64,000 nt of DNA from Candidatus Marinacidobacterales bacterium (GCA_965219415.1 CBDCNP010000001.1:1-64000), one strand, 5' to 3'. Shown: positions 241-64,000, counted from the first letter of the stretch. Program-made: numbers and translations. Notes: a model not told the origin generated them from the sequence alone.

Positions 241-670
241 CGTCCTGTCCAAAAACACAAACGAACTCAAGACCGGCTCGCCGGGACGTTTCGGAATAGA
301 CGGTGTCTAGGCTTGGTTGGCAATGGAAGCTAGAATCCCCGGTCATGAGGACACCGATCCCGTCCTGTGCCAAAACTCGGCCCTTTTGAAATAGACCATA
401 AATCAGCAGCTTAGCGACTGGGCCAAGGGCCCCCTAGGCTTTACAGTTACCCAACCCGCGGTCGACCTTCGAGAGAGCCGCGGCCGTTTCACCGGACGGC
501 AGAGGACGGCGAACTGCTGCCGAAGAGCGACATTGTCGAGAGCCAGCTCGCGATGAGCCTTGAAGGCGGAGATGAGAGCGCGAACAAACGACGAAATCAA
601 GCAGGTATGGTGCCGACAGACCGGAGACTAATCAAGTTCGGGGCGCCCGGATGAATAAATAGAAGGCACA
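241..670. mobile_element. Nested IS-end cluster: B end plus B-transposase 5' stub (241-360), A end (361), D-transposase 5' stub (minus strand, to 600) and D end (645-670)
   Basis: Matches the recurring end motifs; stub MISSFVRALISAFKAHRELAL..VALRQQ.AVL is the N-terminus of an rve-type transposase. Confidence 0.8.
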
Positions 671-1151
671 ATGGGAAAGCTTCTTTTGCTGTTCGTCATC
701 GTCCCCGCCGCGGAGCTCGCTCTTCTCATCCAAGCGGGAATCTATCTCGGTACGTGGCCGACGCTCGCGTTGATCGTCTTCACCGGCATCGTGGGCGCGT
801 ATCTGGCACGGCGGCAAGGTCTCTCGGTTTTGACCCGCGCTCAGGAGCAGATGGACCGTGGCGAGCTCCCCGCAGGCTCGCTCGCGGACGGCGTCATGAT
901 CCTCGTCGCGGGCGCACTGCTGATGACACCGGGGATCCTCACCGACGCATTCGGCTTCTCGCTGCTCGTGCCCGGCTTCCGCAACCTCATCAAAGACACC
1001 TTGCTGGCGCGCTTCCGTAAAGCGGTCGAAGAAAATCGATTGCACGTGCACGTCTCCGGGATGGGATTCGACGCCCGACTCGGGCCCGGTGGTGGACAGC
1101 CGACCCGAGAGCTTCGAGCCCGATCCGCCGAAATACAAAGTGCATTGACCG
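671..1151 (+). CDS. fxsA: FxsA family membrane protein; 3' end cut by a B end
   Basis: MGKLLLLFVIVPAAELALLI...GAYLARRQG...GALLMTPGILTDAFG is the FxsA signature; ATG directly abuts the D end. Confidence 0.9.
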
Positions 1152-1440
1152 CGTCGTGTCCAAAAATACAAACGAACTCTAAGACCCACGCGACGGGCCG
1201 TCGCCGAGTTCATCTATCATTATCATGGAGAGCACAACCATCAAGGGCTGGGCAACGCGTTTGTGTTTTTGGACACGACGCGCAAGGTAGATGAAGCCCG
1301 AATTGTTCCTGACGTGGCCGTCGTGTCCAAGAATACAAACGAACTCAAGACCCTTGGGCCGCCTTGGCCCGGTCGCGAACACAGACACTAAGCTGCTGAT
1401 TTATGGTTTATTTCAAAAGAGCCAAGTTTTGGCACAGGAC
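1152..1440. mobile_element. Two mini-elements: B-B (1152-1280, enclosing a transposase scrap YHYHGEHNHQGLGN) and B-A hybrid (1319-1440)
   Basis: Inverted end motifs read directly; no TSD. Confidence 0.8.
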
Positions 1441-1472
1441 AGAGTAGATTATCTTTTTCCAGGAGGTGCGAC

Positions 1473-1904
1473 ATGCGCAAGAACCTCAAACCCGAAGAGC
1501 TAGGCGACCTGCTCACCGGCTCGACCGTGGCGATTCTCGCGACCCACATGCAAAACGGCCACTCGTTGTTGTCGCCGGTCTGGCACGAGTTCAGGGAGGC
1601 GGGTTCACGGTGATGACCTTCGCAAAGGATGTGAAGACCAGGCACCTCGACCATAACCCCATGGCATCCGTCGTAGTAGCCGACAGCCAGCCGCCGTATC
1701 GGGGCATTGAAATACGAGGAGAAGCCAAGGTTTCGCACCCGACTGACGACCTCGACATCCTACGACGCCTTGCCATCCGCTATCTCGGTGAGGCTCGAGG
1801 AAACGATTATGCCGATGGTATGAAGGAAATCGACTTTGCGATGATCCGTCTCGAGCCGGGAACACTTCGCACCTGGGATTACAGCGACGAGGAGATGCTG
1901 ACCT
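1473..1904 (+). pseudogene. Pyridoxamine 5'-phosphate oxidase-like (PPOX class, F420/FMN-binding) protein; frameshift near 1595, stop removed by an A end
   Basis: AGGAGG RBS; MRKNLKPEELGDLLTGSTVAILATH..LSPVWHEF then second frame VKTRHLDHNPMASVVV..PPYRGIEIRG..RLAIRYLG. Confidence 0.75.
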
Positions 1905-2222
1905 CGTCCTGTGCCAAAACTCGGCCCTTTTGAAAGACCATGGCTGTAATTTAATGCACCGTAAAGTCTTAGCGTCATTTTACCAACACTTAATGGCGGA
2001 AGCACCCATGAGGTCTGTGTGAGCAGCAGGGCTGCCCGATCGAACAACGGCTGCCTGACCAACAGTAGGATTTGCACATGGTACGTCATGATGGATCCGA
2101 AGATAACACCCTCGGGCCAGACGATTGTAAAGTCCACAGCCCCTGGCAACCGTCCCAAAACACAGACGCTAAGCTGCTGATTTATCGGCTATTTCAAGAG
2201 GGCCGAGTTTTGGCACAGGACG
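1905..2222 (-). mobile_element. Composite non-autonomous element (A end + IS1-MITE piece + ~50 bp foreign DNA + transposase 5' stub + A end); inverted copy at 63452-63768
   Basis: Near-identical reverse-complement copy at the other end of the window. Confidence 0.9.
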
Positions 2223-2304
2223 GGATTAAGCGAAGAAGTGAGGAACGCCGCCTGACTTTGAAAATTGATCCACAACTCTTGACAATATCTCCGCACGAAC
2301 GGAT

Positions 2305-3360
2305 TCATGCACCAACGCTGTCCAAAAGGCCAATATCTCTTACAGCAAATTGAAAGATCTGCCTTACGCCCTCGGTATGACGGCCCGGATTGAGAAATTG
2401 CAGCGGCGTCGGGTAAATGATTTGTAGATCTTCCAAAACCCCGCGCAAAATGCCGATTGCAACTGCCTGCATCTTGCTGCCAGTTGGCGCGATTACGATT
2501 CGATCAAACGCCGAGTGGCGTTTATACAGATCCAGAATCAAATTCAGGGTTTCCCGATAGTCGAAAGTGCTAGCCTCGTGAACCTCTACGCGCTGCAGTG
2601 TCTTCACTGTCGAATGGTTCATCTGATCAATTGCAGCGGTACGCCAGGCCATTTCTTCACGTGGTGATTTACCACGCACTACATCGTTGTGGGTCGGTTG
2701 AACCTCTTGAACAAGATTCGACAGCTGACTTGGATCAAATGATGGAAACGAAATGAGACGAATAGCACTTCCTAACATAGAGACCGAGCTCAACTCTGGG
2801 CTTGAGACGATCTCGAAAATTCCACTGGAAATGAATGAAGGACTTGGGCTGTCACCTGTACGCGCCTCTACGTAATCTCTTTCAAGCGGCGGATAGACTT
2901 CGGCTTCCGCGTACAAGACGTGAAATTCCTTTACCTTTATGTTCTGCACCAAAGCCACGATGGTCTGCACAATCAGCAACCGCGACATTCCGGAGATATC
3001 TACATACACTCTATCAAAACGCGATCCGTAGTCCGCAAGCAACGAGCCTATGCCTGAGGGGCGCTCTCGGTCATACTCAAACTCCTGGACGTCTAGGCCG
3101 CACGCTATATTGAGAAATGCCGCTTCTTGGTTCTCATCCATTTTTAACAGATATCGAACCAAAGCGACATGAAAATCCGACGACGCTTCGCGCGCTCGCT
3201 TAAGCCCGGCCAGCGCTCTTTCCTCAAAACCCATTGCGGCGACAAAGCAATCCCCCGAACCAAGTACGACCTGGTCAATAGGTTCCAAGTCTGGCCAATC
3301 CATCGCGGATAGTTGTTCATCTGACCTGCGCAATACTTCTGGAATTGTCTCAGTCCCCAT
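2305..3360 (-). CDS. Uncharacterised protein with two CARF-like/Rossmannoid lobes
   Basis: 351-aa ORF, last in an operon; DISGMSR fits the CARF [D/N]x[S/T]xxx[R/K] motif, and IAPTGSK is a second degenerate copy. Confidence 0.6.
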   Translation of the reverse strand: MGTETIPEVLRRSDEQLSAMDWPDLEPIDQVVLGSGDCFVAAMGFEERALAGLKRAREASSDFHVALVRYLLKMDENQEAAFLNIACGLDVQEFEYDRERPSGIGSLLADYGSRFDRVYVDISGMSRLLIVQTIVALVQNIKVKEFHVLYAEAEVYPPLERDYVEARTGDSPSPSFISSGIFEIVSSPELSSVSMLGSAIRLISFPSFDPSQLSNLVQEVQPTHNDVVRGKSPREEMAWRTAAIDQMNHSTVKTLQRVEVHEASTFDYRETLNLILDLYKRHSAFDRIVIAPTGSKMQAVAIGILRGVLEDLQIIYPTPLQFLNPGRHTEGVRQIFQFAVRDIGLLDSVGA

Positions 3361-3363
3361 CGC

Positions 3364-6300
3364 TTACTCCTCATCGAATAATTCGCCTTGGTTTTCAACT
3401 CTCCGACTTCTCACTCTCGGGTCACCTACACCTTTGAGCCGCTTTCTCTCTTGAAAGGTATTAGGATCAGTCAGGAGCAACTCTATCTCCCTATTTTCGA
3501 GCTCAAGAGAGTCCCTTTTGCTAAACGTAAGATTGAAATGTGGTATTAAATATCTCCTCAGGTAAAACCGGGGAACGACTTCCCCGCGACGACTCTTGCC
3601 GCGAGGGTCTATCAATAGGATCGAGAACCGAATCAAATCATTCAATAAATCCTGTGCATCCTCCGATAAATGCAGCGCTTCATACGGTTCGATCCTCGAC
3701 GCTTGATGTGGCGGATTTCCTGTCACGTTGGCTGCGTTGCGAAACCGCATGTAAGAACTGGCTACGTTTCCTATTGCGCTAACGATCCTAGCCAGCTCTG
3801 TTCCACGGCGCGGCAGGTTACGCACCGATTCCATGAACTCGCCAGCTGCCACCCGAATGGTTTTCGATTGTTTTGCTAGTGGTATCCGCGGTGTTTCGGA
3901 GTGGGAATTCATGAACCCAACACCACCCACGTCTTCTACCATCTTTCCTACGAGTCGGATCATGTAATGAATGTCGCCACTACACATCGCCGTCACAGTC
4001 TGAACTCCATAAAAGGTGCTAGACGTCGTTCTTTCTCTGAGTCTCCTCGCCGCTTCGTTTTCGTTCCTCGTATTATCGCCGAGCAATTCTTCAAGAGATT
4101 TGCACGGAAAATCGTTAACCTTTTGAAAACGACGATGAAAAAGATCTCCCAGGAAAGCCTGCACCTGTTCGCCATCATTCTTGAGGTAGCGCAACCCCAA
4201 ATTTAATAGGTCGTATTCACGCTGTTCGACGTATTGCTTGCCGTCAATGTCGCTCCGTTCAAATGATATTGGGCTCTCCGTTGATAATTTATAAAATACG
4301 TCTGCGCTTCGATGCATGAATAATCTGTTGAGGTTACGCTGCAACGGTTCCGTGATTTTCGGTGTCGAATAGTCATCAATGAAATAAAAGAAAGGCCGCT
4401 CCCTCAGGAATGAAAATGTTGATCTGAGTTCTGTACAAAACTGGAACAACGCATTCGGACCGACGTAACCTTCGATTGGTTGATCCAGAACATCGCAGAC
4501 ACGCTGTTTGTTAGCCGCGCGTGCGCGTTGTTTCAAAAGCCTAGAAATCAAGGGCGCAAACCGGTTGGAAGTGGGTTCAGTAGGCTGCCGAAGCCCCATA
4601 ATGTGAAGTGACCCCGCTTTCGTGGACAGGTTAAGAGTTAGGGATCAAGCGTCGCGATAGTACCTCCTTTCGAATTGGATAGGCGAGCAATAGTCGATGG
4701 CGGAGTGTCGTCGTCGCAGGTTGTACCAGCCTTCGATGAAATCGAAGGTCGCCATGCGCGCCTCAGCGTGGTAGCGAAACGACCGGCGCTCGATCAGCTC
4801 GCACTCGAGCGTCGCGAAGAAGCTCTCGCACATCGCATTGTCGTAACAGTCCCCGACCGAACCCATCGACGGTCGCACCCCGGCCTCCCGGCATCGCTGG
4901 CCGAACGCTAGTGACGTGTACTGCGTGCCCTGGTCCGAGTGATGGATGACGTCGCCGGGCTTGCGTTGGAACAGCGCCATGTCGAGGGCGCTCAAGACGA
5001 GCGACGTCCGCAGGTGGGTAGCCATTGCCCATCCGACGATGCGTCGGCTGAAGGCGTCCAGCACGACGGCGAGGAACAAGAAGCCCGACCACGTGGGCAC
5101 GTAGGTGATATCGGCGACCCACAGGCGGTCGGGCCGGTCCACCTCGAAATTCCTGTCGACGAGATCGGGGGCGGGATGGGCGTCGTCACAGCGAATCGTA
5201 GTGTGCGCCCTCTTGCGCCGGTGAACACCTTGAATGCCAGCCTCGCGCATCAGCCGCGCTACACGCTTGCGTGAGACGTGGAGCTCGTGTGTCTCTCGTA
5301 GCTCGTGGAGGATCCTCGGCGCGCCGTACGTGCTCCGCGACGCGGTGTGAATCGCCCGGATCTTCTCAAGCAACTCCGCATCCGACACCGCGCGGGCCGA
5401 CGGGGCACGCTCAAGCCACGCATAGTAGCCGCTGGCGGAGACGTCCAGCAGTCGGCACATCGTGGCAACCGGTAGTGAATCCTGGTTCGCCCTCACGAAT
5501 CGGAAGGCTTCGGTGGTACCGACTCGGTCTCCCGAGCGAACCAGGCCGCGGCTTTTGAGAGGATCTCCCGCTCCAACCGTAGTTGACGGTTCTCCCGTCG
5601 CAGGCGGCGGAGCTCCGCACGCTCCTCACTCGTCAGACCGTCCTGCCTGCGACCCTCGTCGAGATCCGCCTGGTTCACCCAGTTCCGGATCGTCTGGCCC
5701 GAGGGCTCAAACTCTCGCGCCAGCTCTTCGGAGCCGCGGCCAGCTCGCACCAGCTCTACCATTTGGCGCCGGAACTCGGCCGCGTATCTGTTTCCCTGCT
5801 TTGACATCGTGGACTCCTGTCTCCCAAAGGATTAGGTGTCCACGAAAGCGGGTCAAGTCCAAATGTTCCAAAGTCGTCGCGTTATCATCGGTTCTTTTTG
5901 TTCGAACTCCGGTTGAAAATGTTTCTTCGCCCAACTGCTCACCCATTGCAAAGTCTCTGCCATAAGGCTAGATATAATAAAGTGCATCGGTATGTCGACG
6001 GCGGCTGGCCTTTTCGGCAATGCATAACGTGGAAATGAAAAATACAAATCATCGCAGCGATAGTAGATGCCAATAAATTGGAGATTGCATGGTTCATCCG
6101 CCTCTACGGAGATTAGGTAGTCCAAGCTCAACGCTCTAAATACTGTTGTTTTTCCGCAGCCTCGTGGCCCAGTAAGTACTAGATTTGACCGCGCCCTAAT
6201 CTCGGTCAAACCCAGCAATCGATCAGAATATAAACTTCTGAGTAGCAGATGGGAGTCTCCCATTTGCTCGCAATTGGGATAATCGAACGGGGTCACCATT

Positions 6301-7112
6301 TGAGTTGATGTGTGCTCGCTCTGAACGGTGAGAAACTCGTCATCAATCCCAAGTAATTTCTCATACAACTTTCTCGGGTTGCGGGCGAGAGGATCAGCAA
6401 TAGGATCGGTTTCGATCAAATGACGGCCCAGGAAATCGAGTCGCAGAATGTCGAATACGTAGCGGTCCCGAGATTGCTGCTCCTGGTAGTTAATGCACGC
6501 CAGTAAATCTTTGAGAATATGGGCAACGAACAGATAATCGCTATTGTGCTCCATTCCCGTTACTTCGGTAATGCCGAAGTCAGTAACCCTGAATGCTATT
6601 TCTCCACTCAAATCATATCTTGGCTTGGAAACCAACACGTTGCCTGCGTGGAGGTCGCCGTGAGCCATGCGGCGCTCGTCAAGTTCAAAGAGTAAACGGA
6701 ACATCGTGTTCAGGAATCGCTCTACAAACGCTATGCCGATATCATTGCGATTGTTTTTAATGAACCGTGCTAGAGACGAGCCCGCTACATAGTGGCAAAT
6801 GAACACCACAAAGGTCCTACCCAGAATGTCATCCTGCCAAGGCCGAACATCGATACACTGGACGACAGAATTGTTCTCCAGGGAGTTCGCTTTTCTCGCC
6901 TCTGCTAAGTAGAGTTGGCGTTGCTCTGGGTCCACCGGAAGATTTTCTGTCGGCACGAATTTGAAGGCGAGATCGCTTTTGATATTCTCGGCGTGCGCGC
7001 GATATACGTGACCATTAAGGCCAGAGCCGATGTGCTCTACGATTTTATAATTCGAAAACCCAGGTAAAGTCTTTCCCAAAAAGTGCCCTGGATCGGAGAG
7101 GTGTTTCCGCAT
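3364..7112 (-). pseudogene. Ser/Thr protein kinase fused to a P-loop (ORC/CDC6-like or STAND) ATPase, about 828 aa when restored; split by IS3
   Basis: Kinase motifs GSGLNGHVY, LAFK, HGDLHAGNVL, DFG; Walker A GPRGCGKT; Walker B-like FIDDYS; removing the IS and one AATG restores frame W-N-I-M-G-L. Confidence 0.85.
4604..5861 (-). mobile_element. IS3-family insertion sequence, 1258 bp (orfA 5493-5807, orfB 4645-5496)
   Basis: TG..CA imperfect IRs; HTH orfA; DDE orfB (WVADITY, HSDQGTQY, DNAMCESFF); 4-bp TSD AATG at 4600-4603 and 5862-5865. Confidence 0.97.
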
Positions 7113-7113
7113 G

Positions 7114-8238
7114 CTAGTGGCGTTGCTCATAAACGAGTATGTGTTCCATCTTCACGCCGCCGAGATGGCGCCTTGAGCGGCGAATGTCAGGAATACGGTC
7201 ACTGATAGTCTCTTTAATTTTTAAACCCGGTGCAAACTCGTCGATGACCTCTGAAATTATCTCCGAGGGGAAGCGCTCATTTTGCCGTTTGGTTTTCTCG
7301 CCCACAACGAACACACATTGACCCGCCTTGACCAACGTCGCGGAGAGCATTCGAGCATAGCATGTCATCATCCGACGAAATCCCGCGTCGCCATTAAGTC
7401 GTGTGTCAATGCGATCTTGTATATCCCCTGATAAGAACCAATTGCGCAGACGGTTATCCCGTCCATAGTCAAGCGCGTTCATGTAGGGCGGACTGGTGAT
7501 AAAACAGTTGACGGAGCGCGGCGGGGTAAGGAGTTCGACTGTTGATCGTCGAATCCCGACGACCAAACTTCTGTCCATTTTTTTATGCCGTTTCAACGCG
7601 CGCGCAACCTTCGCCCTGATGCGGGGCTCCACACTTCGATATTCATACATCTCGGGATAATCGTCTCGAGGGAATTTTCTCGATCGAAGATAGGGTACGA
7701 GGTGACTGCTCGGAAAAGATAAGAATCCGGGACGCTGATGGTGAGAAATACCCAGTAGGCAGGCCAACAGAAAATGGTGCCGACGCTTACGCAATACCGC
7801 TAACAACTGCAGCGCCTCTTTGAGTGTGTCTGGGTGATAAAAATCACGCACCCACGTTGGAACGCTGCGAAGGTCGACTTGGCGCGATTGCGCGGCGACA
7901 AGGCTGCTGTCAAGTGCCGCGTACGCCTTGGCGAGACTACTCGGCGCTCCCAATTTACCTTTGGTTAGGGTTACCGCGTAAAGGCTCGCATCGGCGGCAA
8001 ATGCCCGCCGCCCCATCTGCACGGATTCCAGCGCCACCGTACCACTGCCGCAAAAAACGTCCGCAACCAGTTCGCCTCTTCTGGAGTACTCCGCGATCAG
8101 GTCGTGCGCGATGGAACTCTTCAGCTTGCCAATGTATGGCGAAAGCTGATGCAACGTGGATTCGCTGTGAGTGCACGCCACCTGCCACCCTGGTGGCGCG
8201 TATTGAGGTTGGCTGATCAGGCTTTGATACGACCGCAC
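7114..8238 (-). CDS. DNA amino-methyltransferase (N4-C/N6-A type)
   Basis: Motif I DVFCGSGT, motif IV TSPPY, N-terminal LHQLSPYIGK; GGAGG RBS before the GTG start. Confidence 0.9.
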   Translation of the reverse strand: MRSYQSLISQPQYAPPGWQVACTHSESTLHQLSPYIGKLKSSIAHDLIAEYSRRGELVADVFCGSGTVALESVQMGRRAFAADASLYAVTLTKGKLGAPSSLAKAYAALDSSLVAAQSRQVDLRSVPTWVRDFYHPDTLKEALQLLAVLRKRRHHFLLACLLGISHHQRPGFLSFPSSHLVPYLRSRKFPRDDYPEMYEYRSVEPRIRAKVARALKRHKKMDRSLVVGIRRSTVELLTPPRSVNCFITSPPYMNALDYGRDNRLRNWFLSGDIQDRIDTRLNGDAGFRRMMTCYARMLSATLVKAGQCVFVVGEKTKRQNERFPSEIISEVIDEFAPGLKIKETISDRIPDIRRSRRHLGGVKMEHILVYEQRH

Positions 8239-8470
8239 TACTCAACCTCCAAGACGGAAATGGATTTCACAGCCGCGGGCTGTCACATCGTTGACGACGG
8301 GTTCCTCCGGTTCATCGCGAGCCATCTAGTCGAAGATATGAAACGTTCGCGCGCGTTCCCTGAAAGGGCGGACGGTGATTCGGGCAACTCCACGCGGCGA
8401 TCCTTGAGACCTAGGCGGGTTTCTGCGCGTAAGTTCGAGATCGGCTGGTTCTCGGTCAGTGGGCCTTCCC

Positions 8471-8562
8471 CGTCCTGTGCCAAAACTCGAATCTTTCGAA
8501 ATAGACCATAAATCAGCAGCTTAGCAAGTTCGGTGTGCGCGGATGAATAAATAGAAGGCACA
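8471..8562. mobile_element. 92-bp A-D hybrid mini-element
   Basis: A end forward fused to D end reverse. Confidence 0.85.
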
Positions 8563-8656
8563 ACCGTCTCGAACCGAAAAGGCGCCCTTGTCAATCCCGA
8601 TACCGCCTCTTCCACGACAATCGCCGCCCAAGAATGCCCTCCAGTTTGTCGAGGTA

Positions 8657-11437
8657 TCACAGTAACGACACCGTGCTGAGGTCTGTCCAGTTCAACTTCT
8701 GTAGGTCACCAATTAGCCAAGCATGTGCGAGATCCGTCACTGGTCGTGTAGTGTCTATGGCCGGTAGTGAGTCTCCCACGATCGGGCATGGTGTTGCGTC
8801 GATCCCGGATCGAACCGATCTCAAATTCTCTTCTTCTTCTCGCCAATAGGACAGCAGATCGAAGTCCTCGGACGCGCCCCACTCCAAGGCCACCTGCGAT
8901 GCGCCGTCTCGAGGTAGCGCCCTCGCACACCAGGTCAGACTAGGTGCCCCCTCCCAGTGGGACTGTTGTGACTTCGTCAGCCGACCCTCCAGTCTGATGG
9001 GAAACAGCCGGGCGAACCGAAAACGGTTCCGAAAACCGCCGAACCACCGATCGACCATCTCCATGTAGAGCTGCAAAGCGGACGAGTACACGGCGGTGGC
9101 GCGTTGTAGCAACCGCTCATCGCTGTAGAAGTCCCAGGTGTGGAGTCCACGCGTACCCTTTGAAGGTCTCCGGTCAAACCCCGGCCAGGGATCACGAACT
9201 ACGTCCTCGCCTTGCTCCAGTAGGCGTTCGAGTTTACCCCTCATGAGGTCAAGTTCGTACGGCGCTATCTCCAGCTGACGAATCTTGAACACTATAGTTT
9301 TTCGTCTCGCCTGCGTGGCCATCTGCCTGAACGGTCTCAAGCACCTCCCGCGCGCCCATCGGTCTCGGGCTGAACTCTCCTTGTCCGGCTATGGCCAAAG
9401 CAAACGCCCACACGAGTTCGCGTGTCGTGTGGTCGGACGGCAGTGCGAGCCGTCTCGTCAATATTGTCTTCGACAAAGAGTCTACTAGATAGCGTCTTGT
9501 TCTCTTCCATGGCCATTCCGCACCAAGTGGGGTCATTTCTGTATGAAGGATCGCCCAACCCGGGTCAAGATGCCGAAAACCAGTCTTCGCACCCTCTGGC
9601 AATTGCACGACGGGATGAGATAGCGTTCTCCCGCCGCTGTACCAAGAAGTCGTAATCGTTGTGGAGTCCATTCGGATGCCCACGGCAGCCGTGCTATCGT
9701 CAGCAGCAACTGGACCGATTTCTTGAAACAGCTTGCCCAGACCGCGGCGCCACGCGTCCATCGCGTTCCAGAGTTCGGACCCTAGCTGCTCGGCAGACGC
9801 GGGGGACCTATCGGTAACGTCCTCGTCGCCCCCTGCCGTGGCAGTGTCTTGGATCAGAAGAGCTGCAAGGCCGGGATCCGAAGAGGCGAGTTTGTGACGC
9901 AACGCATCTCGGGTATTTTCGTTTTCGGATTCAATAACGAGTTGGAAAGCCGTCATCCAACGGTCCGATGCGGGAACGATTTCGTCTATAGGGACGTTTT
10001 CTTCGATAAGCGCTCGCGCTGCGTACCACTCCCTCAACACCTCGTGGTTGAAATCGAACGTGTCTCCAGACTCGTCGATGAGACGAGAGTTTGCCAGCAA
10101 TCCCTGTCCAACGTGACTGAGCGTCACGTCCGACTTGCGTACACGTCTTCCGGTGCTGATCGCCTTTACGGCCAGTCTCTGCAGTAGGCAGTTGAGTCCC
10201 TCTCCTTTTTGTCGGCTCTGCTCGACGACTTGTTGGGCCAGCCGGTTGATTAGATCCACTGGACGGTCGAGGCCTATCGCCCGTCCGCGGCGCAATTCAG
10301 CCCCGATCATCACCGCGAACAGTGGGCGTCGAGCCGCGTTCCGAAGGGATTCCGACCAACTGTATAGTTCTCCCAGTTGGCATTTCCTGCAGGCGATCCT
10401 GCTGATCAAGTCGAGGGTCTCATCGTCATTCAACGCGGGAAGTATAGTGTGTTGCTCAGGTACCTTCAGGCCGGGTAGTGCGCTGCTTGTGGCTAGAACG
10501 CGTGATTTCGGGTGCGCGTCCATGTAATACTTAATCTGAGTAATCAATTCGTTTGCTTGAGACACTCCTGTTTCGTCGAGGCCGTCGAGGATCACCAATG
10601 TTGGTTGATAGTACGGCTGAACTAGCCCAGCGGTGCGCTTTTCGATGTACTCTTCTAGCGGGTCGGTCAGGTCTCTTGCATGCACAAAAAGTGGGAAGGG
10701 CTGGGTTCCGTCCTGTAGCGCGATTTCAATGGCGCGCTGAAAGAAGCGTGAAGCGGCCAGAGACTTGCCGGATCCAGTGGCCCCGACCACCATCTGGAAG
10801 TGGAAATCTCCTGCGGTCAGGACGTCGCCGACGGAGCGGTCATTGGCGAGTTCGGTAGCAAGGTCACTGGGGACGTCCAGTGTAATCCACAACTGCTTGC
10901 ACTTGGCGAAGGAGGAGTCGCGCCATTCTCGTAGCTTCTGGCGGCGAGCGGGCGGCGCGGGGTCTCGCAGGGCCGTGGTGATTTCATCAGATAGCGAAGC
11001 GGTAAGCGCTTCGTGGAGCGCCGGGCCGGAGTTGACGTTCCGCCATTTGCAATACCCAGACACCGTGGTGAGGAGCTCTCGGGTTAGCGGGTCTCGGTTT
11101 TCGGCCGGCAGCTTGAATACGAGGAGACGGCGGCCAGTGGCTATGCGTGCATTGATTTCGTCGACTACAGGTTGGGTAGTCTGTGAACCTACGAGCCACA
11201 CGAGAAGGTCGGCGTCTCTCGCCTTCTTCAAGTAGGCATCGACCGCAGATTCCGAACTCGCGGGAGTGAATTCAAATGCCCAGGGTTGCGCGCATGGAAA
11301 CCTATCGAACGTCCGAACTGCCTCGTCCCGCGCCCACTGCAATTCCTCCGTCACGCTGCTGATGAAGACAAGGAGATTGGACTCGGAGCGCAACAGGATG
11401 TCGTCGGGGGTTTGCTGAGACTTAGGCACAACAGTTA
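8657..11437 (-). CDS. DUF4062 (TIR/NDT-like) + NACHT-type NTPase; apparent frameshift near 9335; start uncertain
   Basis: LVFISSVTEEL..PWAFE..AYLKKARDADLLVWLVG..DEI; Walker A GATGSGKS; Walker B LVILDGLDE; C-terminus continues in ORF 8657-9340. Confidence 0.75.
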
Positions 11438-11515
11438 GTGAACCGCCCCGGGGGATGTGTCCCGAGGTCCGTGGAAAAAGAACGGCACCCTCCACTCCGT
11501 CGTCAGAGTATCATA

Positions 11516-11905
11516 TCAGGCGGCGACCTTCGCGTGTTCGAGAACCTCGCTCAGACGTTGGTAGCCGTCGATGCGTCGTGGTTGAATCTGGCCAGAGGCG
11601 ATAAGCCCAAACAGCAAAGCGACCGCGGACTCCTCGCTGGAGAACGACGCTTGGGTTTTCGTCCGGCGTCGAAACTCGCGGTTGAGATTCTCCAGAGCAT
11701 TGGTCGTTCGAATCGATTTCCACATGGCACGAGGGAATTCGTAGAAGGTCAGCAGCTGATTACCGGCCTCCTCTAGACTTCGGACGACGGCCGGCGCGAG
11801 AGGCGTCCGCTTGGCGACGAGTTCGTCATAGGCTTTGCGAGCATCGATCCCGTTCTTGGCGTAGACGATCCGGTTGTAGTCACGCCGGAGCTCACGGCGT
11901 GCGTG
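11516..11905 (-). pseudogene. IS256-family transposase C-terminal fragment
   Basis: LLTFYEFP..WKSIRTTNALENLNREFRRRTK; cut by a MITE at 11906. Confidence 0.85.
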
Positions 11906-12068
11906 GGTGCTTGCGCTGTTTGCTGTTGGTGATGTGTACGTATCCCTTTGCAAAAGAGGCGCTTAAGCTCCATTTAGCGCGCGGCGAAGGTCGTGAGCGC
12001 CATTTTGGCTGTAATTTAATGCGCCGTAAAGTCTTAGCGTCATCTCACCAACACTTAATGGCGGAAGC
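11906..12068 (-). mobile_element. 166-bp IS1-derived MITE; its last bases are displaced to 13331-13333 by IS3
   Basis: IRs GGTGCTTGCGC / GGTGCTTCCGC shared with IS1 copies; other copies at 20536, 38848, 40827 and 61023. Confidence 0.9.
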
Positions 12069-13939: not shown

Positions 13940-14414
13940 GATCTCATCCTCTGTAGCTAGTGACAGCGAGACACCCGGCATGTGGCCGATGAGCAACATC
14001 CCCCGACGCACCGGCACCCCTGCCCGAATGAGGTCGCCTCCCGTCGTCGCCCACCTGGGTCTCGTCGCAGGTTCACTGACTCCGCCCACGCTACCGCCAC
14101 GCATGGTACCCTGTGCCTTCTATTTATTCATCCGCGCGCCCCGAACCTGATCGGTCTCCGATCTGCCGGGACTATGCCTGCATGATTTCGTCGTTTGTTT
14201 GCGCTCGGCCCTGGGCACGGCCGCAAACACAGACTCTTAAGTTGCTGATTTATGGTGTCCCTCCTATAAATTCCGTCCGGTGCAGAAATCCCGGCCTTTC
14301 AGGGTGATGCCCGATAGCGTTGGTGGCATGCACACGATCCTGCTTCACGGCGTCGTTTCGGCGAGCCAGTTGCGTCTGTCCGCGCCCGCCTCTCTCGTCG
14401 GCGCAAACGCTCCC

Positions 14415-16202: not shown

Positions 16203-16267
16203 CCATCTGCACCTGCTTGTTGCAGTCCAGGCGAGTCTTGAGTTCGTTTGTGTTTTTGGACACGACG

Positions 16268-50210: not shown

Positions 50211-50297
50211 GTCGTCGGCCATCGCAGGGCCTACGGGTACGGCATGCTGCTCGTACGACCGCCGGCGGGGACGGCCTGTCGCACCTCACCATGTTGA
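50211..50297 (+). pseudogene. cas6e: Cas6e C-terminal fragment
   Basis: GHRRAYGYGMLLVRP glycine loop; stop overlaps the cas1 start. Confidence 0.7.
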
Positions 50298-51196
50298 AAG
50301 GGCGTCTCGGCCTTGACACGGCCCGGATCCCCCACACGGATCGGGCCGGGCTTCTCTGGCTCTCGCGCGGCGCGCTGACCGCGCGGGACGGAACCCTCAC
50401 CTTCGAGCGCGGCCCGTACGGAACGGAGAACGACCCCCTGGAACCGGGTCACTACGCCATACCGTTTCAGGGCGTCTCCATGATCTTGCTCGGTCCTGGC
50501 TCGACCGTGAGCCATGACGCGCTACGGCTTCTGGCCCGGCACGGTACCGCGCTCGCCGCTGTCGGCGAGGACGGAGTGCGCTGTTATACTGCTCCACCGT
50601 TGATCGCCGACCGGTCGGGCCTCGCGCGACGCCAGGCGCGCGTCTGGGCTGACGCCAAAACTCGGCTCCAAATCGCGCGACGCATGTACGCATGGCGCTT
50701 GGGTGACGTTCTTCCCCGCAGCGACCTCGCGGTGATGCGCGGCATTGAGGGCGCCAGGATGAAGGAGACCTATCGTCTCATGGCTACGACGATCGGAATC
50801 GAATGGCGGGGACGGCGCTACGATCGGTCACGGCCGATGGCGAGCGATCTGCCGAACCAAGCGCTGAACCACGCGTCGAGTGCGGTTGAAGCCGCTGCCG
50901 CCATTGCCGTCTCCGCGACGGCGACCGTGCCGCAACTCGGTTTCATCCATGAAGATGCAGGCCAGTCCTTTGTGCTCGACATCGCTGATCTGTTCCGCGA
51001 CTCGGTGACCATTCCCACTGCGTTCCGGGCTGCGAAGAAGGTCTTGGCGGCGCCCCGTGCGAACATCGAGCGCGTAACGCGGCGCGAGACCGGGTACGTC
51101 CTCAGCCGGGAGCAAACGATCCCGAGAATGATCGACCGGATTAAGGATTTGTTTGGAGATCCGAAGCCAAATAAGGAGTCGCGGTCATGCCCATGA
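50291..51196 (+). CDS. cas1: Type I-E Cas1
   Basis: LLGPGSTVSHDA, RGIEGAR, LGFIH, FVLDIADL. Confidence 0.95.
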   Translation: MLKGRLGLDTARIPHTDRAGLLWLSRGALTARDGTLTFERGPYGTENDPLEPGHYAIPFQGVSMILLGPGSTVSHDALRLLARHGTALAAVGEDGVRCYTAPPLIADRSGLARRQARVWADAKTRLQIARRMYAWRLGDVLPRSDLAVMRGIEGARMKETYRLMATTIGIEWRGRRYDRSRPMASDLPNQALNHASSAVEAAAAIAVSATATVPQLGFIHEDAGQSFVLDIADLFRDSVTIPTAFRAAKKVLAAPRANIERVTRRETGYVLSREQTIPRMIDRIKDLFGDPKPNKESRSCP

Positions 51197-51480
51197 CGGT
51201 CGTCGTCACGCGGGACGTCGAACCCAGATATCGTGGCTTCCTCGCCTCAGCGCTGCTCGAGGTCGCCCCGGGCGTCTACGTGTCGCCCAACCTCTCAGCC
51301 GGGGTGCGCGAGCGCATCTGGTCAGTGATCGAAGACTGGTTCGGTGCGCTTGGGAACGGCGCCATCGCCATAATCTGGCGGGACAGCACTGCCGGAGGCG
51401 GCCTCGCACTCCGCCATCTGGGTGACCCTCCGAAGGAGATCCGTGAAGCCGACGGCGTGCTGCTCGTCAAGAGGTTGTGA
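51187..51480 (+). CDS. cas2: Type I-E Cas2
   Basis: RYRGFLASALLEVAPGVYVSP..GVRERIW. Confidence 0.95.
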   Translation: MPMTVVVTRDVEPRYRGFLASALLEVAPGVYVSPNLSAGVRERIWSVIEDWFGALGNGAIAIIWRDSTAGGGLALRHLGDPPKEIREADGVLLVKRL

Positions 51481-51719: not shown

Positions 51720-51857
51720 GCCAGATCGCATTCGCGAGGACGCACTCCGCATCCACGCGCCGTTCCGCTTGCGTCGACGCGGCGTCGAGACCAAGCTCGT
51801 TCTGGGCAACCCCACGAAATCCGTTGACCGCACCCTCCTGCGCAATATCGCCAATGC

Positions 51858-52785
51858 CGTCCTGTGCCAAAACTCGGCCCTTTTGAAATAGCCCATAAAT
51901 CAGCAACTTAGAGTCTGTGTTTGTGGCCGTGCCCAGGGCCGGGCACGAACGAACGACGAAATCATGCAGGCATGGTGCCCGCAGACCGGAGATCAATCAA
52001 GTTCGGTGCGCGCGGATGAATAAATAGAAGGCACAACCCAATGGGCGGTGAGAAACGTGCGCCACGGCGTCCGCTCTCCTCGTTCCGGCGCGGGCTCGAT
52101 GCCTTGTTCCCGCAGAATACTTGCGATGGTGCTCCTAGCTACGGCATGGCCGAGATTCGAGAGGGCACGCCGCGAATCCTAATCTATCCCCACCGCGGAT
52201 TTTCCTTCGCTAGACGTAGGACGAGCTCCGTACTCTCGACCATCACCCAGGGTCGTCCAAGCTGTTTCCGCCGTGTGCTGTAGTCCCACTTCCGCGCAAT
52301 GAGCCTTCGGTGCCAAGCCAGAAGGGTTTCCGGTGTGACGATACCGGCAACTTCTGCCAAGAGTTTCCGGCCAAGCGCCTTACCCTTTACCGCGAGCCGA
52401 CGTCGCTCGTCGTCCGTGAGGCGAAGCTTCCTCCCGCGAAGCCGAGCTTTGAGGACTCTGTTCTCCTCAAGCAAGTAGACGATAGCGGCTTGTTGGTCAC
52501 GCTGGACCCAACCAGCGATGGTGACCACCAACAATGTCAAGGGCTGGATCGGCGTGTTCATGACCGAGGATTCTAGCTTCCATTGGCGAATCAAGCCTAG
52601 ACACCTCTAATCCGAAACGTCCCGGCGCGCCGGTCTTGAGTTCGTTTATATTTTTGGACACGACGCCATCCGTTCCGTCTAACTGGCGCGACCGAACTCC
52701 TATGCGGCGGCACGGTGGTAATAACCCGTGCTCCGCAAAAAGTCGATCCAGGGTCTTGAGTACGTTTGTATTTTTAGACACGACG
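51858..52785. mobile_element. A-D hybrid (51858-52035), truncated B-family transposase (minus, 52036-52561) and B ends (to 52665 and 52785)
   Basis: TPETLLAWHRRL, ENPRWG; end motifs. Confidence 0.85.
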
Positions 52786-55127: not shown

Positions 55128-55158
55128 TATCCAGATTATATCAGGCAAAGCTTGACCG

Positions 55159-56584
55159 CGTCCTGTGCCAAAACTCGGCCCTTTTGAAATAGGCCATAAA
55201 TCAGCAACTTAGTGTCTGTGTTTGCGACCGGGCCAAGGGCCGTGGGCTTTACAATCGTCTTGGGCGGGCGGGTCGTCGCCATGCAGATGACCACCTAGTC
55301 GAGAGCGAATATCGAAGCGTGTTCCTGAAGCGGTTTCCACGCTACGCCTGTCGAGCCCGCCGAGTGGCTACCGTCGCCGGCGACCATCTACGCGGCACGG
55401 CAGTAGTAGTTGAGAATGCCCCCAAGTCGCTCTCGCGACACGATGGGGCTAGTGTCATTCGCGCTTGCCGGCAGAGGTGTGATGAGCTCGTTGCCGAGAC
55501 CTTGGTGGTTCCGTTCTGTGTGATAGTGCACTACGTATTCGGTTACCGCTGTGCGCAGGTGTCGCTCACTGAGAAGTACGAAGCGGTCGAGACACTCTCG
55601 ACGTATGGAGAGAACGAATCTTTCCGCGTATGCGTTCAGATTCGGACTATTAGCGGGAAGGCGAAGGGGCTTCACGCCTGAATCTCTCAACAGCCCACGT
55701 ACCGCCTCGGTGAATAGCGGGTCCCGGTCGTGGATGAGGTATCGCTTGCCAAGGAGGAAACCATCCCACATGTCCGTGAGGTTTCTTGCCACCTGCTTCA
55801 TCCACTCCCCGTTTGGGTCTGAAGTCATCCCACCGATGCACACGCAGCGAGTGGCGATATCGATGACAAACAGGACATGGTAGCGGACGAGCCCGAACGG
55901 GTTCGCAACCTCGACGGTGAACAGGTCTGTCGCAGCGATAGCGCCCCAATGAGCCTTGAGGAAAGTGCTCCACGAACATGCTCTTGCCCCGCTCCGGAGC
56001 CGGCGCGATACCGTGCTCGGCGAGGAGCCTCTTGATGGTGTTGCGTCCGAGTTCATGTCCTAGGTTCTTGAGTGCGCCTCGCAGGCGCGTATATCCCCAC
56101 GTCGGGTTCTCCTGCGCCACGCGCACAATGAGCTCACGGATGTCCTTCGCCGTCGGAGGTCGGCCTGGGCTCCGGTTCTTGCTGCCATCGTACTTGGCTG
56201 CGATGAGGCAGCGGTACCAGCGCAGAAGCGTAGCGGGTGTGGCAACGGACGCAATCTGGGCCAGCGCCTCGCGGCCCAAAGCCTGGGCCTTGACGGCGAG
56301 CCTGCGCCGGTCGTCGTCCGAGAGACTGAGACGCTTGCCCCGAAGCCCGGCTCGGAGCACACGGTTCTCCTCTTGCTGGTAGTCGATCACATCCTGCTGC
56401 TGGCGGTTGACCCAGCCAGAACGAGCAGTAGGAATTGCACGTGGTACGTCATCATGGATCTGAAGATAACACCCCTCGGGCCAGACGATTGTAAAGCCCA
56501 CGGCCCTTGGCCCGGTCGCAAACACAGACGCTAAGCTGCTGATTTATGGCCTATTTCAAAAGGGCCGAATTTTGGCACAGGACG
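55159..56584 (-). mobile_element. Full-length A-family IS, 1426 bp, 102-bp terminal IRs, frameshifted rve transposase (55388 to ~56455); extra right end at 56585-56722
   Basis: 55159-55260 is the near-perfect reverse complement of 56483-56584; no TSD. Confidence 0.9.
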
Positions 56585-56739
56585 AGGTGGTCATCTGCAT
56601 GGTGACGACCCGCCCGCCCAAGACGATTGTAAAGCTCACGGCCCTTGGCCCGGTCGCAAACACAGACACTAAGTTGCTGATTTATGGCCTATTTCAAAAG
56701 GGCCGAGTTTTGGCACAGGACGCCATCGGACTTACAGAC

Positions 56740-61188: not shown

Positions 61189-61568
61189 AAGACCGGAACA
61201 TCGACCAGCCGGAAGAAAGTGCGGTTTCCGAACCCGTCCTGACGGACGATGGCAAGCCCCTCCGGCATTGGCTCCTCGTCTCCGCCGGAGTCGTCGGGAT
61301 TCCTTTTGTCGTGGGGATCGTCCTGTACTTTCTCCTTACTGGCGGAGGTATCGACGAGACCGGGGAGGCTCCCGACGCACTTGAGGCGCCGACAAGCACC
61401 GTGGCAGAGTCGGCTGCGCCACCGTCCGGCGAGACGGAAGCTCTACCCGAGGCGGCGCCGATCGTTCTGCCACCGCTGTCCACCAGCGATGACTTCGTCC
61501 GCGCGATAGTCGAGAAGCTCTCCGCACATCCCGTGCTGGCGTCGTTTGTGGTGACCGAGCAGCTCATT
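61189..61568 (+). pseudogene. DUF3014-like membrane-anchored protein fragment
   Basis: TM segment, Pro/Glu linker, LPPLSTSDDFVR. Confidence 0.6.
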
Positions 61569-61794
61569 GGTGCTTCCGCAATCAAGTGTTGGCAGCAGAT
61601 GCCTAACCCGTTCGTGTACTAGAGTTTGAGCCTGATTTCGAGAGACTCAGTTCTTTCGGCGATGCCGGCTGGGCTGACGATGCGGTGCCTTACATTCAAG
61701 GACATCTTCGTGTGCACGCCGACATCCTTGTTAATGGCGTTCGAAGACACAGGCAGGACAACTAACACTGGTATTCAAACGCGGCTTAGCAACA

Positions 61795-63239
61795 TATCTG
61801 GACTCCTCTAGTCAAGCCCCTTTCTTTCTAGTCACGCCCCTTTCTTAATAAATCTTCCATCGAAGCTGCGCATCCATCGCGTCGTGACGAGTGGGTCAGA
61901 CTGCAAACGTATCTTCGGCCTCAGTGAGGAGCGTCTTGGGTGCTCCGGGCCATGATGGAAAATCCGCGCGCGAGGAGCCAATCACTTTGAACGACCTCTT
62001 AGGGCCAGTGTTGCTATTGGCTTGACCCCGCGCCGGTCCGACCGGTACGCCATCAGTTGGATGGGTATCGTCGCAGCCTCTTTTGGAAGGGAAAAAGGAA
62101 AACACGAAAGTGGAGCCTCTAAATCTAAGCGGCCACCGGCGACTGGAATTCACTCTCGCGGGTGGAGACGGCCCAGACGATCCGGGCGAGTTTGTTGGCG
62201 ACAGCAATCACGGCCTTGTTGTGTCCCCGCGAGCGGTGGACCTTCCGAGCCCAGGCGCGGAGCTTGTCGGGCGGGCTCTTGCTGACGTTCGCCGCGCGGA
62301 GCACGGCGCGCCCGCCCTGGGTGAGGAGCATACGGAGGTAGGAGTCGCCACGCTTGGTGATGCGTCCGAGGCGGCGAATGTCGCCACTGGAGTTTTCCTT
62401 GGGAACTAGGCCGAGGTAGCTCGAGAAGCGGCGCCCCGATGGGAAGCGGCGAAGATCGCCGACGAAGCCCACGATGGCGGTCGCGGCCAGAAGTCCGATG
62501 CCGGGAATGGCGAGAAGTCGTTGGACTTCAGGAAGCTGCTTGGTGAGCGCCTTGAGCTCGTGCTCGATGCTAGCGCACTTGTCCTTGAGTTCTCGAATCT
62601 CGGAGCAGGCATCACGGAGATGCGAACGGAGCACGTCGGGCAAATCAGAATCAGCGTCTTCGACGAGTTCGAAGAGGGCGGGCACGACGAAGTGAGCGCC
62701 CTTTGGGATGATGAATCCGAGTTCGCGCAGGAGCCCGCGTACGGCATTGATGCGTGCGGTCCGTGTGGAGAGCCATCCTGAGCGCAGGCGATGGAGCGCA
62801 GCGAGGGTGTGCTGGTGCACGGACTTGATGGGTACGGGAAGAAGCTCCTCGTTCCTGTAGGCCTCGAGCAACGCCTTCGTGTCGGCGCGGTCGTTCTTGC
62901 TCCCGCGTCGATACGGCCTCACGAGGTGAGGTGGGAGCAGGACGACGTCGTGTCCCAACCTTCGGAACGTCCTTGCCCAGAAGTGAGCCGAGCCGCAGGC
63001 TTCGAGAAGCACGGTGGCAGCGCTCTGTTTGGCAAAGAACGACACCAATTTGGGTCGACTCACACGGAGTTGCTTGGACACCTTCCCCGCTTCTCCCGAG
63101 ATGGCAATCTCGAAGACGTTCTTTGCAAGATCCACAGCGATTGTCGTATCTTTCATTTGGACTCCTCCTTTTCGATGCGTATTCGACTGACTTTGGCACA
63201 TCGATGCCGTCTATGTCAGTGGAGGAGTCCATTCCATCA
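61795..63239 (-). mobile_element. IS110-family (IS1111 group) element; recombinase at 62125-63156
   Basis: AVDLAK, LEAC, KNDRAD, GLVPKENSSG; sub-terminal IRs TGGACTCCTC; long 3' non-coding region; CA/TG core at both junctions. Confidence 0.95.
61895..62060 (-). ncRNA. Bridge/seek RNA of the IS1111 element
   Basis: Position downstream of the recombinase; contains segments matching the target and donor junction sequences. Confidence 0.8.
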
Positions 63240-63257
63240 CTTGATAGCGGAAGCACC

Positions 63258-63451
63258 AGACAGCGCGAAATGGAGTCGTGCATCGAACTTGGAACTGTTT
63301 CAATCCACTCCCCCCGCCGAAGCGAGGGGAGACGGCAAGTATTCCGACTCAATGTCACCGGGGGCGGAGAGTTTCAATCCACTCCCCCCGCCGAAGCGAG
63401 GGGAGACAACAAGTCATTCCGTTCCCGTCAACGCCACGTGAGTTTCAATCC
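63258..63451 (-). CRISPR. Orphan CRISPR fragment: two full 37-bp repeats (63297, 63371), two partial repeats, three spacers (35, 37 and 34 bp)
   Basis: GTTTCAATCCACTCCCCCCGCCGAAGCGAGGGGAGAC; reverse complement ends ATTGAAAC; not the I-E repeat. Confidence 0.9.
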
Positions 63452-63768
63452 CGTCCTGTGCCAAAACTCGGCCCTCTTGAAATAGCCGATAAATCAGCAG
63501 CTTAGCGTCTGTGTTTTGCGACGGTGCCAAGGGCTGTGGGCTTTACAATCGTCTGGCCCGAGGGTGTTATCTTCGGATCCATCATGACGTACCATGTGCA
63601 AATCCTACTGTTGGTCAGGCAGCCGTTGTTCGATCGGGCAGCCCTGCTGCTCACACAGACCTCATGGGTGCTTCCGCCATTAAGTGTTGGTAAAATGACG
63701 CTAAGACTTTACGGTGCATTAAATTACAGCCATGGTCTTTCAAAAGGGCCGAGTTTTGGCACAGGACG
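63452..63768 (+). mobile_element. Second copy of the composite element at 1905-2222
   Basis: Near-identical sequence, opposite orientation. Confidence 0.9.
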
Positions 63769-64000
63769 GGGTCCCGGTCGTGGATGAGGTATCGCTTGCC
63801 AAGGAGGAAACCATCCCACAGGTCAGTGAGGTTTCTTGCCACCTGCTTCATCCACTCCCCGTTGGGGTCCGACGTTATCCCACCGATGCACACGCAGCGG
63901 GTGGCGATATCGATGACAAACAGGACATGGTAGCGGACGAGCCCGAACGGGTTCACAACCTCGACGGTGAACAGGTCTGTCGCAGCGGATAGCGCCCGTC
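63769..64000 (-). pseudogene. A-family transposase internal fragment
   Basis: Matches 15060-15283. Confidence 0.9.

Follow-up and report, generated by a model that had tools for sequence, protein, structure and literature searches.

The 64,000-nucleotide (nt) window considered here, positions 1-64000 of contig C2 in the assembly of a Candidatus Marinacidobacterales bacterium (GCA_965219415.1, CBDCNP010000001.1; G000:C2:1-64000 in our numbering), is crowded with the ends of DDE transposons, between which stand accessory genes and pieces of genes; short units derived from transposons cap nearly all breaks at which unrelated or cut genes meet. The ends belong to two unrelated transposase lineages and are almost entirely confined to about a quarter of the genome. 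They lack target-site duplications (TSDs) and, where a suitable paralog of the flank is available, the DNA on one side of an element hardly ever continues on the other. We give somewhat better than an even chance to the explanation that transposition is here coupled to rearrangement (deletion or duplication), which would erode and shuffle accessory DNA with no capture device involved.

Transposon ends and the compartment that holds them

The ends are defined by four cores: A (TGTGCCAAAACTCGGCC), D (TGTCCAAAAAYACAAACG), E (TGTGCCTTCTATTTATTCATCC) and B (GGTGCTTSCGCNNTNNRNTGTTG). Together they occur 75 times in the window (A 26, B 24, D 16, E 9), where 0.21 matches of the A core would be expected from shuffled sequences. 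The genome contains 557 A, 239 D, 245 E and 674 B ends, as opposed to 18, 2, 1 and 3 matches, respectively, for reversed-pattern controls. For 59.5% of the positions in the window, BLAST gives a further match in the genome. Alignment boundaries pile up at sharp termini, and conservation falls abruptly outside each end. The high density of ends at gene boundaries, claimed in an earlier note on this DNA, is borne out by these counts; its list of families (A, B, D, a minor TGT family and IS1) was incomplete, the E end having been missed. Inclusion of the E ends converts many apparently orphan A ends into two-ended A-E units. A fifth, TGT-ended element, termed G, is located at 36486-37412.

End types A, D and E are IS481-like, and B is IS1-like. 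The A ends bound a 1.43-kb element, of which 18 full-length copies are present; TGTGCC forms part of their inverted repeats, which measure about 30 nt. Its transposase scores 97.2 bits with the NCBIfam profile transpos_IS481 (cut-off 224) and 78.9 bits with that of IS3 (cut-off 160); judged by its sequence, element A is a distant IS481 relative only. Members of the IS481 family possess terminal inverted repeats with a TGT core and produce a TSD of several bp. The D ends retain the C-terminal motif of an A-like transposase. The B ends bound a 1.2-kb element (35 full-length copies), for whose transposase NCBIfam ranks IS1 first, below the curated cut-off (transpos_IS1, 84.5 bits, cut-off 100; zinc-binding N-terminal domain, 19.9 bits, cut-off 28). 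The IS1 family characteristically generates TSDs of 8-9 bp. Fragments of the B transposase also show weak matches (E 0.0099 and 0.0019) to DDE_Tnp_IS240, which we take to be an IS6-family domain. In addition, B-type repeats flank a 1,689-nt unit that carries the gene for an IS110-family RNA-guided transposase and is present in 10 full copies at 98-99% identity; the explanation is either that a miniature unit of B type serves as the target of IS110 or that IS110 has itself taken up the repeats.

Intact transposases are encoded at C3:5550138-5551568 for A (381 aa) and at C3:4832837-4834036 for B (392 aa). Each transposase lineage is accompanied by many short non-coding derivatives. The recurrent short units of the genome are B-B units of 166 nt (n = 139) and about 240 nt (n = 12), A-E units of about 150 nt (n = 68) and 179 nt (n = 38), A-B units of about 120 nt (n = 41), D-D units of about 125 nt (n = 10) and A-D units of about 115 nt (n = 10). 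The chimeric units, whose two ends are of different families, thus amount to 106 A-E, 41 A-B and 10 A-D. The A-A unit at 1900-2226 belongs with 14 pairs spaced near 320 nt. Under a nesting rule, by which an end is paired if an inward-facing partner lies no more than 1,800 nt away, 54 of the 75 window ends and 1,090 of the 1,715 genome ends are paired, leaving 21 and 625, respectively, as solitary. The paired ends form units of approximately 100 to 1,700 nt, many of them chimeric (A-E, A-D, A-B and B-B units are found in the window). The description of the ends as orphans therefore holds for the solitary ones and fails for the rest, since most ends pair under this rule.

The assembly is metagenome-derived and consists of 8,046,490 bases in three contigs (C1, 2.07 Mb; C2, 0.28 Mb; C3, 5.69 Mb), each with a GC (guanine plus cytosine) content of 0.59. 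When 10-kb bins with at least two ends are combined into a compartment, 21 blocks are obtained, the largest of 890 kb, which add up to 2.19 of the 8.05 Mb. This 27% of the genome contains 1,693 of the 1,715 ends (98.7%); C1 has only 8 ends in its 2.07 Mb, and the count is near zero over the first 1.8 Mb of C3. The density of ends is thus not uniform along the genome, so that the equal density named in the earlier note as a ground for refutation is not what is seen. By long-motif matches the window is the top 64-kb bin (54 matches, compared with 51 in the second bin and a median of 0 among 127 bins). It is not a unique locus: because the top bin sits within the 21 end-rich blocks, the window represents the extreme of a compartment.

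More than one copy exists for 56% of random 30-mers in the compartment, the GC skew there is flattened, and open reading frames (ORFs; crude longest-ORF picks) have a median length of 221 aa versus 300 aa outside. Core and compartment stretches alternate along a single contig, and IS3 and ISL3 copies occur on all three contigs. The quality estimate for the assembly is a completeness of 96.33 and a contamination of 8.45. The latter value may reflect genes duplicated into the compartment, such as fxsA (20 segments on C3 and one on C1 match in tblastn), or else a mixed assembly.

The intact transposase of element A (381 aa) was used as a query against a collection of species-representative genomes. 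Relatives are encoded by at least 471 among the 500 pattern-matching stretches listed; of the best 80 loci, 79 are in records named Candidatus Marinacidobacterales bacterium and one is in a Gemmatimonadota metagenome-assembled genome. Parts of the window (36000-45900) are matched in public sequencing runs (15 rows from 8 studies, best share 0.58), several of which are labelled as sponge metagenomes; the genome is that of a sponge-associated acidobacterium. Searches by the name Marinacidobacterales, and by sponge symbionts combined with Acidobacteria and IS (insertion sequence) elements, found no publication on this lineage in the library searched. A passage in PMC11410982 notes abundant transposases in sponge symbionts.

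Flank continuity and target-site duplications

The strongest result concerns the flanks. For each flank side of a recurrent unit, we looked for a paralog that lacks the unit and examined whether its continuation lies across the unit. Among 742 flank sides, 288 have no paralog and 53 have only unit-bearing paralogs; of the remaining 401 informative sides, four are two-sided and 397 are one-sided. In the controls, two-sided and one-sided cases number 29 versus 12 for IS3 and 14 versus 7 for ISL3. Paired and solitary ends alike are found at points where homology stops. Homology breaks exactly at the end in the case of fxsA (671, E end), the racemase gene (44362, B end) and the TonB-dependent receptor gene (39013, outer edge of a B end), and paralogs of these pieces, at 97-99% identity, run on upstream past the end. 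Further breaks coincide with ends in element G (36486), the A transposase gene (15473) and the RtcB gene (16270-16702). The two flanks of an element do, as formerly described, come from different genes. The missing continuation of a flank lies beside another end for 284 of 835 informative ends, compared with 308 of 835 at a control point shifted by +150 nt; since such continuations are not enriched beside ends, there is no sign of reciprocal exchange, and the pattern fits loss.

TSDs were scanned for in 371 recurrent units, over a range of offsets and lengths, and none was detected at k>=4 beyond one to three chance copies. Of the 139 B-B units of 166 nt, none has a TSD at k=8 and three have one at k=4; for B-B units overall the count at k=8 is 0 of 189 (139 + 28 + 10 + 12). 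For element A, one of 11 adjacent pairs matched at k=4 and none at k>=6, and no TSD is visible in the 18 full-length copies. By contrast, a 4-bp TSD is present in 18 of 37 IS3 copies, and an 8-bp TSD in 6 of 8 ISL3 copies read by eye, with partial ones in the other two. The window itself displays this difference: the TSDs of its IS3 (AATG, AAGC) and ISL3 (TGAAAACA) elements, as well as the lack of credible ones at the other ends, were confirmed as first reported.

IS3 and ISL3 are young, with median identities to the window copy of 99.6% and 99.4%, respectively, compared with median pairwise identities of 92-98% in the older A and B families. Age does not explain the contrast in TSDs, however, since near-identical A and B copies also lack them. 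Neither flank is shared in 39 of 41 near-identical pairs of the 150-nt A-E unit, 5 of 10 pairs of the 166-nt B-B unit and both pairs of the 1.2-kb B element.

Two points within A are recurrent sites of junction with B ends. A B end is joined after base 13 of A at 17 junctions, a pair of which have flanks in common, and after base 38 at 8 junctions. The B units at these hot spots vary in size, and the rest of A is never found across the unit; that ends are joined to their targets one at a time, as the earlier note put it, is a fair description of such junctions. At the B hot spots, some pairs of flanks have an overlap of 8 nt. Beyond such specific sites, ends show no general preference for other ends: 28-34% of their outer flanks have at least 10 copies, versus 30% for random 30-mers of the compartment, and only 12 of 549 outward-facing neighbour ends lie within 10 nt of one another. 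Ends of these families are found in 10 of 31 genomes, and the junction of the 13-nt A stub with a B end has 54 occurrences in 7 of the 31, as opposed to 10 occurrences of the complementary half in 6 of the 31 (these counts, like those given below for two cargo genes and two window-specific junctions, include the unpublished genome G007, in which one weak protein match but neither ends nor junctions were found, and on which no conclusion depends). This asymmetry of about 5:1 is repeated in the relatives, including single-contig assemblies, and because independent assemblies share it we argue that the junctions are biological. In the genomes G022 and G018, three B units are bordered left and right by A stubs, and the two junction matches lie on opposite strands at a distance of 169-247 nt.

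The extent of the compartment differs among relatives. G001, of the same genus (one contig, 6.3 Mb), has 29 A-end matches versus 506 in G000, and nearly all of those listed are located near the contig ends (0.6-24 kb and 6.22-6.34 Mb). Were the contig a circular chromosome, these stretches would merge into a single island of about 140 kb. The comparison suggests that the compartment has expanded in the G000 lineage.

Cargo and other features of the window

Pfam domains were scanned in 59 distinct ORFs of the 79 picked in the window, the other 20 being short. The cargo comprises a defence gene in three pieces, a methylase gene, a DUF4062-NACHT gene, glycosyltransferases, amidohydrolases, an amine oxidase, an ion channel and two TonB-dependent receptors, one intact and one a fragment. 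The GC content of 22 cargo segments of at least 300 nt ranges from 0.488 to 0.650, in line with the variable base composition reported before. Many of the pieces are truncated genes, and for several there are 3 to 6 copies, which are 97-99% identical. In three close genomes, DNA matches to the 9-kb defence stretch are limited to the IS3 element and the A-E unit. The defence ATPase gene is matched in one of 54 other genomes of the order, and the genus lacks a close match to the amine oxidase gene. Since these genes are rare in relatives and GC content varies, the cargo is regarded as accessory and probably acquired. The features of the window are collected in Table 1.

Table 1. Transposon-derived units and cargo genes in the window, in order of position (strand as recorded)
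Feature	Position	Strand	Remarks
Solitary D-family left end, ~100 nt	241..345	+	D core; unpaired by nesting rule
A-E two-ended unit, ~312 nt	357..670	+	E end abuts fxsA start codon
fxsA copy	671..1149	+	Pfam FxsA; homology to C1 copy (97.4%) and to C3:5594324-5595093 starts exactly at 671
D-D mini unit, ~130 nt	1150..1282	.	Retains 3' end of transposase gene
D-A chimeric unit, 127 nt	1317..1445	.	Inverted copy at 46532-46658
A-A unit, ~325 nt	1900..2226	.	With 66-nt B-end fragment; inverted copy at 63448-63772
Three ORFs, successive parts of one kinase-ATPase-CARF defence profile	2305..7130	-	GC 0.49-0.51; IS3-split
IS3-family element	4604..5861	-	TSD AATG; two-sided insertion; NCBIfam 339.9 bits
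A-E unit, 99 nt	8467..8566	+	
IS256-family transposase gene, 3' fragment	11437..11905	-	Cut exactly at B end
B-B 166-nt unit	11906..12068	+	Interrupted near right end by IS3
IS3	12069-13326		TSD AAGC
A element, 5' part	14411..15473	+	Transposase gene cut after residue 316 by E end
E...D two-ended unit, 795 nt	15474..16269	+	At least 7 copies
RtcB fragment	16270..16702	-	Profile 273-398 of 426; flanked by D end and B end
A-E 150-nt unit	16870..17020	-	Further copies at 21770-21920 and 36334-36485
ISL3-family element	17205..18589	-	8-bp TSD TGAAAACA
B-A 120-nt chimera and B-B 166 unit	20411..20701	.	Chimera 20411-20534, its A end overlapping start of B-B 166 (20536-20701)
190-nt A-end fragment and 1.2-kb IS1-like B element	26051..27441	.	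B element 26241-27441; broken frame, 254 aa
Element G, 3' part	36486..37412	+	Cut by E end at 36485; eight other copies extend at least 185 nt further left
B-B 166 unit capping TonB-dependent receptor C-terminal fragment	38848..40271	+	Unit 38848-39013; three receptor paralogs at 99% identity run on upstream
IS1-like B element capping N-terminally cut Asp/Glu racemase gene	43251..45048	.	Element 43251-44361; racemase piece starts at 44362; five paralogs run on upstream
cas1 of type I-E, then short ORF	50156..51480	+	PADLOC Cas1e 478 bits; no other cas genes and no array after
A-E 179-nt unit	51857..52035	+	
Full-length A element, 1.43 kb	55155..56588	-	Frameshifted transposase gene; one of 18
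1,689-nt unit, B-type inverted repeats with IS110-family RNA-guided transposase gene	61569..63257	-	
Two CRISPR repeats and one spacer	63297..63407	+	Between B end and A end

The three defence ORFs match positions 41-358, 492-668 and 890-1184 of the 1187 in the PADLOC profile PDLC01925, and the stretch looks like a single large putative defence gene split by the IS3 element and by a further break near 3360. Copies in G003, which belongs to another genus of the same family, share 97% DNA identity with this IS3 element, a similarity that suggests recent horizontal spread. The CRISPR repeats of the window lie 12 kb from cas1, and about 100 copies of the repeat are found elsewhere in the genome. 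An ORF of 513 aa at 37129-38670 has no Pfam or NCBIfam match; it gives 124 tblastn matches, all on C3, and contains a 510-nt tandem duplication (37506-37805 versus 38016-38315, 85% identity). At 53022-54691, a DUF4411 gene adjoins an IrrE/ImmA-type metallopeptidase gene, with weak matches to capP and RmrA; the two likely constitute a toxin-antitoxin or defence-regulator pair.

Candidate explanations and known systems

Simple insertion does not describe the behaviour of the A/D/E and B units, both ends of which are joined to unrelated DNA. In the explanation that we favour, movement of a unit would normally be coupled to rearrangement. Two candidate routes may be considered: (i) intramolecular (replicative) transposition, which would lead to adjacent deletions and inversions, and (ii) insertion where the junction of a deletion or duplication lies, a process put forward for IS481 and IS5 elements in laboratory evolution. 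Over repeated rounds, acquired accessory genes would be cut up, some of the pieces would be duplicated, and an end would be left at almost every break. The traits of adjacent deletions are present, i.e., the element is intact, its flank is replaced, there is no TSD, and the other half of the target is lost; these are compatible with the first route and do not prove it. The earlier idea of an extreme deletion and inversion hot spot likewise agrees with the 397 one-sided flanks among the 401 informative ones. Some DNA must be gained as well, given the far smaller compartment of G001, a genome of the same genus. The ends themselves, their restriction to the compartment, the missing TSDs and the one-sided flanks are observed; the chemistry of the events and the balance between loss and gain are what we infer from these patterns.

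Several observations weigh against this explanation. The mechanism was not seen directly. Events of the deletion type leave copy number unraised, and deletions cannot account for more than half of the compartment being multi-copy. The error of the paralog test is not small, since about 30% of the IS3 and ISL3 sides come out one-sided. A search for empty sites yielded a spanning match for 10 of the 371 joined flanks, and the two that were aligned are simple two-sided insertions practically without duplication: an A element at C3:5462703, where the duplication amounts to 0-2 bp and 5 filler bases are present, and a 166-nt B-B unit at C3:4186724, with no duplication. Because of these two cases, the lack of a TSD is not in itself proof of rearrangement. 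Moreover, the assembly comes from a metagenome, with the contamination stated above, and the junctions of the E end with fxsA and of the B end with the racemase gene were found in none of 30 relatives, only in G000. The former also has no match in public metagenome contigs, and short-read (Logan) contigs over 30001-50000 stop at the units, with no bridging; as such they neither support nor refute the assembly. A generic 17-nt junction with 72 matches in metagenome contigs was not used, as a 17-mer is expected by chance at this scale and the names suggested unrelated habitats.

Among the alternatives, we consider first, as rather unlikely, an IS26-like process in which translocatable units, i.e., circles of an element and neighbouring DNA, integrate at or beside another element so that cargo accretes between elements of like orientation. 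The strong variation of the compartment among relatives, the accessory character of the cargo, its range of GC content, the 3 to 6 copies of some pieces and the weak DDE_Tnp_IS240 matches of the B fragments would all be in keeping with such accretion. Many cargo genes are truncated, however, NCBIfam ranks IS1 first for the B transposase, and only about 17 8-mers are common to the flanks of the 674 B ends genome-wide, several of them being the hot spots in A ends. The orientation of the A-E units shows no significant runs: the longest, of 12, was reached in 273 of 5,000 shuffles, and the 47 runs compare with 55.1 expected (331 of 5,000 shuffles). A run of 77 A ends in one orientation in G003 was rejected, since minus-strand matches occur in the same stretch.

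Ordinary insertions with TSDs, scrambled later by homologous recombination among dispersed copies, appear improbable. Copies with 100% identity already lack TSDs and common flanks, reciprocal partners are not enriched, halves of TSDs are rare, and the two two-sided insertions are essentially without duplication. Short (100-170 nt), diverged repeats are poor substrates for homologous recombination, and the units are of this kind (median identity 92-98%). On the other side stand the hundreds of copies in 2.2 Mb, the flattened GC skew, such as inversions produce, and the fact that even IS3 retains its TSD in only about half of its copies (18 of 37).

We attach a similarly low, slightly lower probability to an assembly artefact, in which strain variants or repeats were misjoined and the junctions are false. 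The source is a metagenome-assembled genome, strain variation might account for the paralogs at 97-99% identity, the contamination estimate allows for a mixture, the window-specific junctions that were tested occur in no independent record, and Logan contigs end at the units. The units, however, reach 1.7 kb at most, in contigs that measure between 0.28 and 5.7 Mb; core and compartment alternate in one contig, the TSDs of IS3 and ISL3 are clean, and the end families and the asymmetric junction recur in other genomes, as noted above.

A dedicated, integron-like capture system, with the ends as recombination sites for cassettes, is very improbable: although the gaps between outward-facing ends are often gene-sized (317 of 549 measure 301-3,000 nt) and three of the nine E ends of the window lie 0-7 nt upstream of a start codon (670/671, 52035/52041, 14112/14104), no integrase or tyrosine recombinase domain was found in the 59 window ORFs scanned, no Rfam family reaches its gathering score within the window, the full-length elements with such ends encode ordinary DDE transposases, the cargo is often truncated, and the ends follow no orientation rule relative to genes (by crude ORF calls, genes on the A side of A-E units point toward the unit in 57 cases and away in 37, and those on the E side away in 43 and toward in 50). 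The integron-like accretion platform suggested earlier, for which shared 8-bp duplications are also too few, is accordingly not upheld, and a promoter or attC-like role of the ends was rejected for want of an orientation rule. The sequence AGAAGG, located just inside the tip of the E end, is similar to a ribosome-binding site.

A broader version of transposition coupled to rearrangement is possible, if on the whole doubtful: that in this lineage duplication-free movement of this kind is the normal mode for two unrelated DDE families and their miniatures, and that it has built, and goes on rearranging, a megabase-sized, repeat-rich accessory compartment beside a core nearly free of ends. If so, bacteria would have an equivalent of the transposon-rich compartments in "two-speed" eukaryotic genomes, and break-associated IS insertion, until now described as single laboratory events, would be seen in nature across a whole genome. 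Movement without TSDs is usually viewed as a rare exception or as the outcome of later TSD decay, whereas here about 1,700 ends of two families lack TSDs, identical young copies included, and nearly all of them lie at breakpoints of homology, while IS3 and ISL3 show classical behaviour. Provided that the junctions are real, this genome and its relatives would offer a natural test bed for distinguishing insertion into breaks from obligatory coupling to rearrangement, and for the question of how a repeat-rich, fast-changing quarter is kept beside a clean core. For annotators, gene pieces in such regions would then be the debris of rearrangement and not genes.

The units share features with several known systems. 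In IS26 arrays, copies of one element stand between successive segments of cargo, and no TSD accompanies a single copy. The window resembles them in both respects, but for its B transposase NCBIfam ranks IS1 first, next to the weak matches to the IS6-type domain, and neither composite 8-bp duplications nor significant direct-orientation runs are seen. Like miniature inverted-repeat transposable elements (MITEs), the short units measure about 100-330 nt, are non-coding, and have terminal inverted repeats that match autonomous elements, with tens to hundreds of copies; unlike MITEs, they lack TSDs, are in many cases chimeric, and have unrelated flanks. The gene-sized cargo between short repeated sites recalls the cassette arrays of integrons, from which the window differs: no integrase was found in the 59 ORFs scanned, the sites share no orientation and bear no attC-like relation to genes, and the cargo is truncated.

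There is also a likeness to the adjacent deletions for which IS1 is known. As in the intramolecular transposition of IS1, IS903 and IS26, the element is kept, the flank at one end is replaced, the copy is not enclosed by a TSD, and each end would gain its flank in a separate event, in agreement with the 397 one-sided flanks among 401. Unlike those cases, about 1,700 ends are found in 2.2 Mb, miniature units take part as well, two families are affected at once, and the cargo of this genome is also duplicated, which deletions alone would not explain. Adjacent deletions by IS elements are described in a section of Ngan et al. 2024 (mBio; PMC11708052), which also deals with TSD-less IS copies at the centre of large duplications and deletions. 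The junction copies treated there include an IS481-like element and IS5, and insertion into existing DNA breaks is proposed for them. The copies in G000 are similar in that they lack TSDs and lie at rearrangement junctions, one of the families being IS481-like; insertion and rearrangement may here have been one event or two. In contrast to the single laboratory events reported by Ngan et al., whole families in the present natural genome seem to be in this condition as a rule.

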